From: a virus
Lineage: Duplodnaviria; Heunggongvirae; Uroviricota; Caudoviricetes
Virus record (IMG/VR): IMGVR_UViG_2721755728_000002
Length of the DNA: 55,396 bases
Direction: 5' to 3' (one strand)
Shown: positions 39,627 to 51,137 of the stretch, piece after piece
How the letters are laid out: the number at the start of each line of letters is the position of its first letter
How positions within the stretch are numbered: position 1 is the stretch's first letter
Program-made: the position numbers and the translations under genes
The notes under the pieces: model-generated
Seen by the model: the letters and a program-made list of their open reading frames with translations, nothing else
What the model was told of the DNA's origin: nothing
Databases searched by the model: none

Positions 39627-40370
39627 ATGACACAGACTGAATCAGCGATTCTGGCGCATGCCCGGCGGTGTGCGCCTGCGGAGTCGTGCGGCTTCGTGAT
39701 AAGCACGCCGGAGGGGGAGTGGTATATCCCTTGTGTGAATATTTCTGCAGAGCCGGAGGCGTATTTTCGTATCGCACCGGAAGACTGGCTGCGGGCAGAG
39801 ATGCAGGGGGAGATTGTGGCACTGGTCCACAGTCATCCCGGTGGGCTGCCCTGGCTGAGCGAGGCTGACCGGCGGCTGCAGATAAAAAGTGCACTGTCCT
39901 GGTGGCTGGTCTGCCGGGGGGAAATTCATAAATTCCGCTGTGTGCCACATCTGACAGGACGGCGCTTTGAGCACGGGGTGACGGACTGTTACACGCTGTT
40001 CCGGGATGCATACCATCTGGCGGGAATTGATATGCCGGATTTTGAGCGTGAGGATGACTGGTGGCGCAACGGTCAGAACCTTTACCTGGACAATATGGCG
40101 GTCACCGGCTTTTACCGGGTGCCCCTGTCCTCTGCACAGGCGGGCGATATCCTGCTGTGCTGCTTTGGCGCATCGGTGGCCAATCATGCCGCCATTTACT
40201 GCGGCAACGGTGAACTGCTTCACCATCTGCCTGAACAACTGAGTAAACGGGAGAGGTATTCCGAAAAATGGCAACGACGAACGCATTCTGTCTGGCGTCA
40301 CCGCCACTGGCACGCATCTGCCTTCACGGGGATTTGCAACGATTTGGCCGCCGCCTCAGCCTGTATGTGA
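39627..40370 (+). CDS. K: Tail assembly protein K (MPN/JAB + NlpC/P60)
   Basis: MTQTESAILAHARRCAPAESCGFV... near-identical to lambda K N-terminus; HSHPGG motif. Confidence 0.9.
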   Translation: MTQTESAILAHARRCAPAESCGFVISTPEGEWYIPCVNISAEPEAYFRIAPEDWLRAEMQGEIVALVHSHPGGLPWLSEADRRLQIKSALSWWLVCRGEIHKFRCVPHLTGRRFEHGVTDCYTLFRDAYHLAGIDMPDFEREDDWWRNGQNLYLDNMAVTGFYRVPLSSAQAGDILLCCFGASVANHAAIYCGNGELLHHLPEQLSKRERYSEKWQRRTHSVWRHRHWHASAFTGICNDLAAASACM

Positions 40371-48098: not shown

Positions 48099-48117
48099 CG
48101 GTTTATTAACCCGGACG

Positions 48118-48142
48118 GGCACCTCAGGAGGTGCCTTTTTTA
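48118..48142 (+). terminator. Rho-independent terminator after J
   Basis: ggcacctc-agga-ggtgcc followed by ttttttatt. Confidence 0.45.
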
Positions 48143-48166
48143 TTGACTGAAAACAAAGAGGTAATC

Positions 48167-48790
48167 ATGCGGCATTTATACGCAACGATATTATTGTTTA
48201 CTACCCTGCTGGCAGGAATTGCCTTTCCTGCACAGGCTGAAAGCGGACACGGTGCATTTTCCGTGGGATATGCTCAGGTTCACCCGGGCGGCGTACCGGC
48301 ATTGTCCGGTACCGGTGCGCGTGCAGGTGATTTAAAAGGGATTAATGTGAAATACCGTTATGAGTTCACGGATCACCTGGGCGGCATTGTCGCGCTGAGT
48401 TATGCATCGGTGAAGAAAAGTGACACGATGAAGACGGGTGAAAATACCTTCCATTATGAAAGCCTGCGCGGTCGTTATGTCAGTCTGATGGCCGGCCCTG
48501 TCTGGCAGCTCAGTGAGCGGGTCAGTCTCTATGGCATGGCCGGGATGGCGTACACCCGCTGGTCTGACAGTGTTCAGGATTACCGGCGTGATGAAGTGAA
48601 ACCGGGGTATGTGAAGGAGACCACCACCGCCAGTGATGGTCATACTGCGCGTCATCTGTCGCCGGCCTGGAATGCCGGGATTCAGTTCAGTCCCGTAGAG
48701 ACGGTGGTTATTGACCTTGCTTATGAAGGTTCCGGCAGTGGCGACTGGCGCACTGACGGTTTCATCGTGGGTGTCGGCTATAAATTCTGA
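48167..48790 (+). CDS. lom: Outer membrane protein Lom (Ail/Lom family)
   Basis: Signal peptide MRHLYATILLFTTLLAGIAFPAQA and beta-barrel C-terminal GVGYKF; position after J as in lambda. Confidence 0.85.
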   Translation: MRHLYATILLFTTLLAGIAFPAQAESGHGAFSVGYAQVHPGGVPALSGTGARAGDLKGINVKYRYEFTDHLGGIVALSYASVKKSDTMKTGENTFHYESLRGRYVSLMAGPVWQLSERVSLYGMAGMAYTRWSDSVQDYRRDEVKPGYVKETTTASDGHTARHLSPAWNAGIQFSPVETVVIDLAYEGSGSGDWRTDGFIVGVGYKF

Positions 48791-48854
48791 TTAGCCAGGT
48801 AACACAGTGTTATGACAGCCCGCCGGTTCAGGCGGGCTTTTTTGTGGGGTGAAT

Positions 48855-50177
48855 ATGGCAGTAAAGATTTCAGGTGTACTGAAAGACGGCACAGGAAAAC
48901 CGGTACAGAACTGCACAATCCAGCTGAAAGCAAAACGTAACAGCACCACGGTGGTGGTGAACACGCTGGCCTCAGAAAATCCGGATGAAGCCGGGCGTTA
49001 CAGCATGGACGTTGAGTACGGTCAGTACAGCGTTATTCTGTTGGTGGAAGGGGTCCCGCCGTCACATGCCGGGACCATCACCGTGTATGAAGATTCTCAG
49101 CCGGGTACGCTGAATGATTTTCTCGGTGCCATGACGGAGGAGGATGCCCGGCCGGAGGCACTGCGCCGTTTTGAACAGATGGTGGAAGAGGTGGCGCGTC
49201 ACGCTGAGGAGGCGAAGAAGAATGCCGGAGAGGCGGAGACGTCCGCGAGGAATGCCGGCATATCAGCCAGTCAGGCAGAAGAGAGCGCTGCAAATGCTGA
49301 CACTTCAGCAGGGGAGGCATCGGAGTCAGCCCGGCAGGCGGCAGAAAGTGCAGCCTCAGCAAAGCAGTCAGAGGATGCGTCCTCGTCCTCGGCTTCTGCG
49401 GCCGCTCAAAAAGCCAGTGAGTCATCACAAAGTGCAGCAGAAGCTGAATTGTCAAGAAAGACGGCAGAAAGTGCAGCCGGTAATGCAGCCAGGGATGCAA
49501 CGACCGCAACAGAAAAAGCCCGGGAGTCAGCAGAAAGCGCACAGTCAGCGGAACAAAGCAGGATAGCGGCGGAAGAAGCCGTAAACCGAATCCCCACAGT
49601 GGTGGGGCCACCCGGGCCAAAGGGAGAACCGGGGCCCGCGGGTCCTCAGGGGCCGAAGGGAGATAAAGGAGAGCGTGGCGACACCGGTCCTGTCGGGGCA
49701 ACCGGTGAACGGGGACCGGCAGGTGATGCTGGTCCGGCAGGCCCGCAGGGGCCGAAAGGCGACAGGGGAGAGCGGGGAGAGACCGGTCTGACGGGAAATG
49801 CAGGTCCACAGGGTCCAAAGGGAGATACCGGTGCGGCAGGCCCGGCAGGCCCGGCAGGCCCACAGGGACCGAAAGGAGAAACAGGTGCGGCTGGCCCGGT
49901 GGGGGCAACCGGACCTCAGGGACCGAAGGGCGACCCGGGGGAGACACAAATCCGTTTTCGTCTGGGGCCGGCGAGCATTATTGAGACAAACAGCAATGGC
50001 TGGTTCCCGGGTACAGATGGTGCGCTCATCACCGGACTGACCTTTCTTGACCCCAAAGATGCCACACAGGTTCAGGGGCTGTTTCAGCATTTGCAGGTCA
50101 GGTTTGGTGACGGGCCGTGGCAGGATGTTAAGGGGCTGGATGAAGTGGGCAGTGATACAGGCAGAACAGGAGAATGA
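48855..50177 (+). CDS. stf: Side tail fibre-like protein with collagen-like Gly-X-Y repeats
   Basis: N-terminus [26 protein letters not shown]... matches lambda Stf N-terminus; ~110 aa of GXY repeats. Confidence 0.8.
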
Positions 50178-50178
50178 C

Positions 50179-50448
50179 ATGAACATACTAAAAAAACTTA
50201 TGCAGCGTCTGTGCGGTTGCGGAAAGCATGATGGCCGTGAACACGGGCAGTCGCTTACAGTACAACTGCGACTGGGACCGGCAGACATTCTGGAGTCCGA
50301 TGAGAGTGGCATTATCCCGGAGCAGGACAGGGTAATCACGCAGGTGGTGATACTGGATGCGGATAAAAAGCAGATACAGTGTGTGGTAAGACCGCTGCAA
50401 ATTCTGCGTGCTGACGGGACGTGGGAAAATATTGGCGGGATGAAGTAA
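50179..50448 (+). CDS. Small protein homologous to the C-terminal tip of the Stf-like fibre
   Basis: 89 aa; LTVQLRLGPADILESDESG... aligns with the fibre C-terminus [18 protein letters not shown]... Confidence 0.45.
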   Translation: MNILKKLMQRLCGCGKHDGREHGQSLTVQLRLGPADILESDESGIIPEQDRVITQVVILDADKKQIQCVVRPLQILRADGTWENIGGMK

Positions 50449-50461
50449 CCCGACGGATTCA

Positions 50462-50490
50462 CAAAAACCGGAGTCCGGCTCCGGTTTTTG
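50462..50490 (+). terminator. Rho-independent terminator
   Basis: ccggag-tc-cggctccgg followed by tttttgttg; exact copy recurs at 51336-51364. Confidence 0.5.
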
Positions 50491-50561
50491 TTGTCATGTA
50501 TGGGGGCTGTTTGTTATGACTCCCTGTGTTTGGAATGAATATTTAAATAGGGAGTTTTGTC

Positions 50562-51137
50562 ATGCCGTTAACATCAGCTATTGCATCCAATTCATTTTCC
50601 ACCGGAATGCAGGTTCTTCGTGCTCAAATGGCCGCCAGTGGCGGTGGAGAAATTACAGTAGGCGGGCAGACGGTCCGTATCACATATAGTGAAACGGATG
50701 GTCGCTTTCTGGCGAGTGGGGGCAATAACAGTTTGCTTTCTGGATTATTACTTACAGGGCTTAATGGTGGTCCTGAAGCGCTCAGGGATATAATGTTAAG
50801 AATGGTTTCAGGTTCAGGTAACACACAATCACATGGTGATATTGAGGGGAAAATATCACAATGTAAGTTTTCTGTTAATACGGAGAGCCTTCAGTGTCCA
50901 TCCGAGGCGGTTCGATGCCCAATTATACTGGATAAACCAGAAGAAGGTGTGTTTGTTAAAAATTCAGAAGGTTCTTTGGTTTGTACCTTATTTGATTCGG
51001 TTTCTTTTTCTCATTTGGTTCGCGACGGTGGGAAGCACCCGCTAACACGAGAACCAATAACGTCATCAATGATTGTAAGTCAAGAACAATGTATTTATGA
51101 CCAAACCAAAGGAAACTTTGTCATAAAGGATAAGTGA
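50562..51137 (+). CDS. nleG: NleG-family type III effector (U-box E3 ligase-like)
   Basis: 191 aa; C-terminal conserved block CPIILDKPEEGVFVKNSEG...CTLFD...HPLTREPIT. Confidence 0.8.
   Translation: MPLTSAIASNSFSTGMQVLRAQMAASGGGEITVGGQTVRITYSETDGRFLASGGNNSLLSGLLLTGLNGGPEALRDIMLRMVSGSGNTQSHGDIEGKISQCKFSVNTESLQCPSEAVRCPIILDKPEEGVFVKNSEGSLVCTLFDSVSFSHLVRDGGKHPLTREPITSSMIVSQEQCIYDQTKGNFVIKDK

Follow-up and report, generated by a model that had tools for sequence, protein, structure and literature searches.

The recombinant collagen-like fiber EPclA is a dumbbell-shaped trimer (Ghosh et al., PMC3368898), and its C-terminal domain, PfC, forms a trimer on its own by SEC-MALLS, shows little helix, is described as β-rich by Ghosh et al., and nucleates refolding of the collagen stalk (PMC3368898). 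A protein composed of PfC only has also been described: ORF68 of the Stx2 phage Sp5 is a non-essential 89-aa PfC protein, for which Mondal et al. (2016) reported no frameshift signal and proposed a possible role as an intragenomic reservoir for fiber variation (PMC5155283). In the short-tailed phage phi24B, cryo-EM revealed that the N-terminal domain of the fiber docks on the tail adaptor; the distal knob was neither resolved nor confidently predicted with AlphaFold by the authors, indirect evidence against binding of the knob to BamA came from phage lambda_2B8, and the function of the lateral fiber is posed as an open question in that 2026 preprint (10.64898/2026.04.10.717836). Fibers of this kind are abundant in EHEC supernatants, as reported in a secretome study, and the locus tags that we guessed for a small gene of the ORF68 type were absent from the supplement of that study (PMC12962677).

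The stretch of DNA analyzed here in full, referred to as the window (55,396 nt), is a long-tailed lambdoid Stx1a-converting prophage. Positions 48100–51200 are 100% identical to E. coli C3 and share 99.1% identity with the wrbA-integrated Stx1 prophage of O26:H11 strain 11368, in which the gene order is integrase, stx1AB, lysis, head, tail, J, lom, fiber, and small ORF, followed by three NleG-family genes, espW, another NleG gene, and then potB. Terminator-like hairpins at 48117–48136, after J, and at 48817–48838, after lom, make lom, which lies between J and the fiber gene, a unit bounded by two terminators. The fiber gene, the small ORF directly after it, and their parts are as follows.

48849–50177, + strand: side tail-fiber gene of the EPclA type, 442 aa from the GTG at 48849
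49950–50141, + strand: PfC domain of the fiber, residues 368–431 (123.8 bits, E = 4e-36)
50179–50448, + strand: stand-alone PfC gene, ATG start, TAA stop, 89 aa
50179–50259, + strand: N-terminal 27 codons of the small ORF, with no counterpart in the fiber in the alignment
50260–50445, + strand: PfC domain of the small protein, residues 28–89, PF06820 positions 1–64

The fiber, annotated as "prophage tail fiber N-terminal domain-containing protein" and started by PGAP in its orthologue at the ATG at 48855, is built from PfN, a coiled coil, a collagen (Gly-X-Y) stalk, and the PfC knob, an architecture that agrees with EPclA (PMC3368898). Its Pfam matches are PF08400 (PfN) at residues 3–135 (E = 4e-68), Collagen at 253–366, and PF06820 at 368–431; an 11-residue tail connects the PfC domain to the stop codon. 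A distant 565-aa protein from the representative library contains four tandem repeats that resemble the latter half of PfC (one being ...VVVLNADEDGATGQMGILRVRQADGTWKEIPAIKG), and it passes the Pfam gathering score with 57.6 bits. These repeats lie N-terminal to a collagen stalk, and they indicate that PfC-like modules can occur in series along a fiber.

The small ORF is the orthologue of Sp5 ORF68/ECs1229, 933W L0122, and phi24B gp59. Its product shares 92% amino-acid identity with the VT2-Sakai (Sp5) and 933W copies and 100% with the copy translated in phage record LC744186.1, carries the PGAP name "phage tail fiber C-terminal domain-containing protein" (WP_001023435.1), and matches phrog_576 over its full length (residues 1–89 against profile positions 1–89, E = 4e-59). 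The feature picked out by the sequence-only reading had thus already been annotated and published. Residues 28–89 match Pfam PF06820 (Phage_fiber_C, PfC) with 120.8 bits (E = 3e-35) against a gathering score of 25 bits, and this match and that of the fiber both cover all 64 profile positions. By its HMM score the small protein belongs to PF06820; it is not placed at the C terminus of a PfN/collagen fiber polypeptide, and the family already includes stand-alone members like it. No other Pfam family matches the small protein at E ≤ 1, and NCBIfam and PADLOC give no match.

Residues 28–88 of the small protein align by BLASTP with residues 368–430 of the fiber with 23 of 63 positions identical (37%), 62% positives, and E = 1e-11, and tblastn of the whole window recovers the same fiber/small-ORF pair (E = 1e-9 to 1e-10) together with only one further PfC-like stretch, short and broken, at 51226–51294. 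Taken with the PF06820 scores, this similarity is far beyond chance. The claim of a free-standing 89-aa ORF that follows the fiber gene and resembles its tip is therefore correct, with PF06820 found in both proteins at E of about 1e-35. The segment of the fiber that aligns is residues 368–431, and not 355–442 as had been proposed.

Ahead of the PfC domain, the N-terminal segment of the small protein (MNILKKLMQRLCGCGKHD) consists of MNILKKLMQRL, predicted to be a short amphipathic helix, a CGCG motif, and a variable linker (residues 19–27). In the alignment, the C. rodentium copy, too, keeps the LCGCGK motif. A signal peptide or lipoprotein signal was considered and rejected, as only 11–13 residues precede the cysteines and K5, K6, and R10 interrupt the stretch; the lipobox check, a PROSITE-style rule applied by inspection, likewise fails for the small protein. 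We speculate that the segment could serve as a short neck in place of the collagen stalk, and that it might form a disulfide or metal knot in a trimer. An AlphaFold2 monomer model, computed from a shallow alignment of 17 sequences, is of low confidence (pLDDT 54, pTM 0.31) and places a helix at residues 3–11, a disordered linker, and five short strands. This model is consistent with a β-rich PfC and is too poor for a comparison of folds. Sequence and profile searches of the PDB returned only a spurious optineurin coiled-coil peptide (E = 0.79 by sequence and 0.017 by profile).

The transition from the fiber to the small ORF is compact: the fiber stop TGA (50175–50177) is followed by a single base, C50178, and then by the ATG of the small ORF at 50179, which lies in a different reading frame from the fiber. 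Two signals frame the gene.

50168–50173, + strand: Shine–Dalgarno sequence AGGAGA, 5 nt upstream of the small-ORF ATG, within the last fiber codons
50461–50491, + strand: intrinsic terminator hairpin (AAAAACCGGAG...CTCCGGTTTTTG), RNA fold −23.5 kcal/mol, z = −4.8

The junction ...CAGGAGAATGACATGAA (GCAGTGATACAGGCAGAACAGGAGAATGACATGAA) is identical in 82 of 86 full-length copies, with one upstream base changed in two more, and the ATG is present in all 86. Translation would thus start from the gene's own AGGAG/ATG, one base past the fiber stop, and the position of AGGAG within the last fiber codons predicts translational coupling of the small ORF to the fiber.

UGA-C is a weak stop context in E. 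coli, and in prfB, to which the AGGAG of this junction can be likened, a Shine–Dalgarno-like element lies just upstream. The junction might therefore be read as a programmed +1 frameshift site at the fiber stop (GAA UGA C AUG), which would yield a minor form of the fiber with a second, tandem knob and would make the small ORF a C-terminal extension. A +1 shift does read ...TGE-D-MNILKK... in frame, the weak UGA-C stop and the AGGAG just upstream lie in a junction that is nearly invariant, and the phi24B authors placed two such fusions, Fusion_6159_FS1 and FS2, among the entries of their search database (10.64898/2026.04.10.717836). There is, however, no slippery P-site codon, since tRNA-Glu on GAA cannot re-pair on AAU, and the AGGAG overlaps the P-site codon and does not lie 3 nt upstream as at prfB; a prfB-type site was rejected on these two grounds despite the UGA-C. 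AGGAG, 5 nt, and ATG make up a textbook initiation site, with the ATG kept in every copy, Mondal et al. found no frameshift signal (PMC5155283), and the junction peptide TGEDMNILK was not seen in the accessible part of the phi24B supplementary proteome (10.64898/2026.04.10.717836). We regard frameshifting as improbable.

Between lom and the small ORF, the + strand revealed no sigma-70-like promoter, so that read-through late transcription together with the fiber is the simplest reading, and the two genes would be part of the antiterminated late transcript. The terminator at 50461–50491 closes the fiber/small-ORF unit and is kept across the sampled loci. Across 67 distinct aligned loci, nucleotide diversity is lower than about 0.15 over the fiber gene, the small ORF, and the terminator and climbs to 0.4–0.65 after about position 50520; the backbone common to all copies ends about 70 nt past the small-ORF stop and about 30 nt past the terminator. 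This jump in diversity identifies the small ORF as the last gene of the conserved backbone, with variable effector cargo following its terminator.

The maintenance of the small ORF was assessed in 84 fetched loci and the window, which together yielded 86 full-length copies representing 64 DNA alleles and 33 protein variants. The reading frame is intact in 84 of the 86, one of the exceptions having a premature stop and the other a frameshift near the end. Substitution rates for the gene and its parts, and for the PfC domain of the fiber, are as follows.

Whole small ORF: pS 0.120, pN 0.017, dN/dS 0.13
Small-ORF PfC part, residues 28–89: pS 0.128, pN 0.010, dN/dS 0.07
Small-ORF N-terminal 27 codons: pS 0.099, pN 0.031, dN/dS 0.30
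Fiber PfC, 44 alleles: pS 0.107, pN 0.029, dN/dS 0.26

The free copy of PfC is thus more constrained than the copy on the fiber, and its dN/dS of 0.07, against 0.26 for the fiber PfC, is more in keeping with a conserved partner than with a receptor-binding surface that diversifies. Among the fiber PfC alleles, replacements cluster at a few positions of the domain (8–9, AS/GN/MS; 16, N/H/Y/Q; 21, D/G; 40, Q/R; 44, L/F/M/V; 46, Q/R; 64, D/N), and these could be ligand-contact residues.

The sequence-only reading had also offered a remnant of fiber-tip exchange, and the small ORF does partially duplicate the neighboring gene and has a true remnant nearby. The suggestion that it is itself a decaying, functionless remnant of an earlier fiber 3′ end is contradicted by the dN/dS of 0.13 at a pS of 0.12, by the 84 intact copies of 86, and by the conserved start codon and ribosome-binding site. 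Peptides of an orthologue have been detected (see below), and the gene is present in 697 of 5,426 complete E. coli genomes, with a median of 10 and up to 15 matching places per carrying genome. The small ORF is a maintained gene and not a relic, and we give the remnant explanation almost no credence.

The true remnant in the window provides an internal control, as it displays what an unconstrained copy looks like.

51227–51392, + strand: second, decayed copy of the final third of the small ORF together with a copy of the terminator (repeat families D4, D5, and D7)

This relic is 82–87% identical in nucleotide sequence and has an in-frame stop and a 7-nt deletion; its terminator is intact. It forms one arm of a direct repeat of about 170 nt, 50351–50524 and 51227–51392, whose arms lie on either side of the first NleG gene (50562–51137). 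The repeated sequence comprises the last third of the small ORF with its stop codon, then the terminator and some 30 nt beyond. This arrangement points to recombination at the small-ORF/terminator boundary as the way in which effector cassettes came to be stacked. At six other sampled loci, a different relic of the small ORF, 122 nt long (query nucleotides 130–251, about 92% identity), lies about 700 nt downstream of the intact copy; small-ORF relics thus appear to be a recurrent scar where the cargo region starts. In five single-member protein clusters, the small-ORF PfC is fused to parts of unrelated phage genes, namely an HK97 tail-length tape-measure (TLTM) domain, CII, DUF1983, and Lom, and these fusions are probably deletion products of decaying prophages.

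Mondal et al. (2016) had suggested that the small ORF is mainly a spare PfC cassette that replaces the fiber tip by recombination or deletion, and the idea of an alternative tip in the sequence-only reading is related to it. One natural case is known, which makes such a replacement possible: at positions 1–300 of contig JAYDZQ010000147.1 (GCA_038404665.1), an in-frame deletion between two copies of a 14-nt microhomology has joined the PfC of the small ORF directly to the first collagen triplets of the fiber, giving a protein that falls in a cluster of four sequences.

49709–49722, + strand: 14-nt microhomology (ACGGGGACCGGCAG) in the collagen region of the fiber gene, with its partner at 50271–50284 in the small ORF (repeat family D10)

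The chimera is followed by a SopA-like effector gene, and the contig starts inside the collagen region. Such chimeras are, however, very rare, with this one small cluster standing against thousands of intact 89-aa members; the sole example sits at a contig end, has lost most of the stalk, and may be a product of decay; and the homology available for exchange is only 11–13 nt. A cassette moreover needs no ribosome-binding site, ATG, or 27-codon N terminus, all of which are conserved and under purifying selection, and peptides of the orthologue have been detected in a published data set. Although tip replacement can occur, we consider it unlikely to be the main role of the gene.

The family to which the small ORF belongs is narrow, being found in E. 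coli, E. albertii, and C. rodentium. Searching 1.84 billion cluster representatives with a profile gave 84 matches, almost all of them E. coli fragments or deletion fusions, and no deeper alignment could be built from these. When one genome per species was scanned, the only matches came from E. albertii and from a 725-bp contig labeled Xanthomonas pisi (NZ_JPLE01000138.1, strain DSM 18956). This contig has a full-length, 92%-identical small ORF and is most likely E. coli or phage contamination of the plant-pathogen assembly. The C. rodentium copies sit in degraded prophage remnants among effector genes: at one locus, a 161-aa PfN–PfC deletion fiber is followed by a 78-aa small ORF and then by NleG, and at another a 60-aa PfC fragment has an NleG gene on one side and a Peptidase_M85 (NleC-like) effector gene on the other. 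As degraded remnants, these copies are uninformative as an independent test of the gene arrangement. Effector genes adjoin the small ORF wherever its flanks were examined.

Of the records in the phage collection, 296 contain the small ORF and 296 a fiber PfC; both sets have the same breakdown by organism, and a record holds about two PfC places. The fiber/small-ORF pair occurs both in long-tailed lambdoid phages and in the short-tailed phages 933W, Sp5, and phi24B, and the only obvious tail part that these carriers have in common is the collagen-like fiber. The presence of the pair with both tail types indicates that the fiber and the free knob travel together as a module, and the co-occurrence could partly reflect simple linkage in one conserved 3′ module.

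Translation of the small ORF, on which the sequence-only reading depended, is supported by published LC-MS data on purified phi24B virions. Two peptides of the orthologue, VITQVVILDADKK and ADGTWENIGGMK, are listed there with three spectra each and map only to an entry termed "gp59_start" (ORF 39891–40295) or to the hypothetical fiber–gp59 frameshift fusions (10.64898/2026.04.10.717836); both peptides are unchanged in the small protein of the window. These two unique peptides indicate that the phi24B orthologue is translated and occurs at trace level in the purified virion preparation, for which six spectra are given for gp59 and about 2,200 for the fiber, and in which the authors labeled the gp59 entry "Spike or just gp59?" (10.64898/2026.04.10.717836). 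With so few spectra, the protein could also be a contaminant of the preparation.

We propose, with moderate confidence, that the small ORF encodes a free, probably trimeric knob that is a dispensable accessory of the collagen-like fiber. The gene is a genuine late gene, probably transcribed with the fiber gene, and its product combines a predicted amphipathic helix and a Cys-Gly-Cys motif with an old, diverged paralogue of the fiber PfC (37% identity). Since PfC alone forms stable trimers, the product is most likely a free homotrimeric knob of about 30 kDa. Such a knob may act as an accessory of the side or lateral tail fiber, probably by binding the fiber or the virion at low copy number or by modulating fiber function, and would be neither an essential assembly chaperone nor the main determinant of host range. 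We infer the trimeric state of the small-ORF paralogue, its association with the fiber, and any effect on adsorption from the properties of the fiber PfC and the conservation of the gene; because Sp5 ORF68 is among the non-essential late genes, any contribution of the small ORF would be conditional or small.

A Tfa-like assembly chaperone, needed for folding or trimerization of the fiber tip, was another function suggested from the sequence. The small ORF occupies the position of lambda tfa, directly after the fiber gene, and appears to be translationally coupled to it. As the sequence-only reading itself had noted, the protein is nevertheless not Tfa-like: PF06820 is its only Pfam match at E ≤ 1, with no match to Tfa or Caudo_TAP. 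Mondal et al. place Sp5 ORF68 with the non-essential late genes (PMC5155283), and the recombinant fiber rEPclA and its PfC both trimerize in E. coli without the small ORF (PMC3368898). An essential chaperone role is contradicted by these observations, and we judge a chaperone of this kind very unlikely.

The small ORF might alternatively encode a soluble knob that acts off the virion. It would be set free when the cell lyses and attach to a ligand on the cell surface, masking, for instance, the receptors of debris or of sibling lysogens, or it would act on the host by other means. The protein belongs to the same fold family as the presumed ligand-binding knob of the fiber, is small, has strong translation signals of its own, and, judging from phi24B, is at most a trace component of the virion; its confinement to three species and its proximity to effector genes would also suit such a role. 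The host distribution is explained equally well by phage lineage, however, and 37% identity to the fiber knob does not imply the same ligand. There is neither a signal peptide nor a lipobox (R10 and K5/K6 break the rule), and the PADLOC search returned no match. An off-virion role seems to us rather doubtful. A broader reading, in which the knob is a functional module, either a second conserved adhesin docked through its N-terminal helix and CxC motif on the invariant C-terminal tail of the fiber or a soluble decoy that is set free by lysis and masks a surface ligand, is only slightly less doubtful. If it were true, the knob would be a portable partner that moves with the fiber between long- and short-tailed Stx phages and would affect the spread of phages among LEE-positive (attaching/effacing) E. 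coli.

Essentially all sampled Stx-converting phages have the collagen-like fiber together with its small partner, and so do many other effector-carrying lambdoid prophages of enterohemorrhagic and enteropathogenic E. coli. Knowledge of the role of the conserved free knob would help to explain the adsorption and spread of these phages. The small gene and its terminator also mark the exact boundary of stacked type III effector cassettes, a mark that is useful for annotating exchangeable effector loci.

The arrangement of the small ORF is reminiscent of lambda Tfa and the Caudo_TAP proteins of Mu and P2, which are likewise encoded by a small gene directly downstream of a side tail-fiber gene, as in the lambdoid late operon. 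The small protein is unrelated to them in sequence, is instead homologous to the fiber tip, and has a non-essential orthologue. In the invertible S–U segments of Mu, P1, and e14 and in diversity-generating retroelements, a second 3′ copy likewise lies beside a receptor-binding gene; here, in contrast, the two copies share one orientation and only 37% identity, and the second is translated from a start codon of its own. The inverted repeats of the window comprise only the terminator palindrome and one 16-nt pair, and the prophage annotation contains no invertase and no reverse transcriptase. An invertible segment or a diversity-generating retroelement was accordingly rejected, as the defining inverted repeats, invertase, or reverse transcriptase are lacking and the copies are only 37% identical. 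A functional analogy may exist with the T-even gp38-type adhesins, which sit on the fiber tip: the small ORF likewise encodes a small separate protein after the distal fiber gene, and this protein could dock on the tip. The small protein is not homologous to gp38 and evolves slowly, whereas the gp38 type has hypervariable receptor-binding loops.

In terms of homology, the small protein matches the PfC of the EHEC prophage fibers EPclA and EPclB over the whole 64-residue domain, whereas PfN, the coiled coil, and collagen are absent and an unrelated 27-residue CxC segment comes first; relative to the fiber PfC, it is 37% identical and evolves more slowly. The closest counterparts are Sp5 ORF68, 933W L0122, and phi24B gp59, which have the same length, the same position after a collagen-like fiber, and the same Pfam and PHROG families. 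These three belong to short-tailed phages with a 645-aa EPclB fiber, whereas the window is a long-tailed lambdoid Stx1a prophage with a 442-aa EPclA fiber, in which the small gene closes the backbone ahead of an NleG/EspW effector locus.
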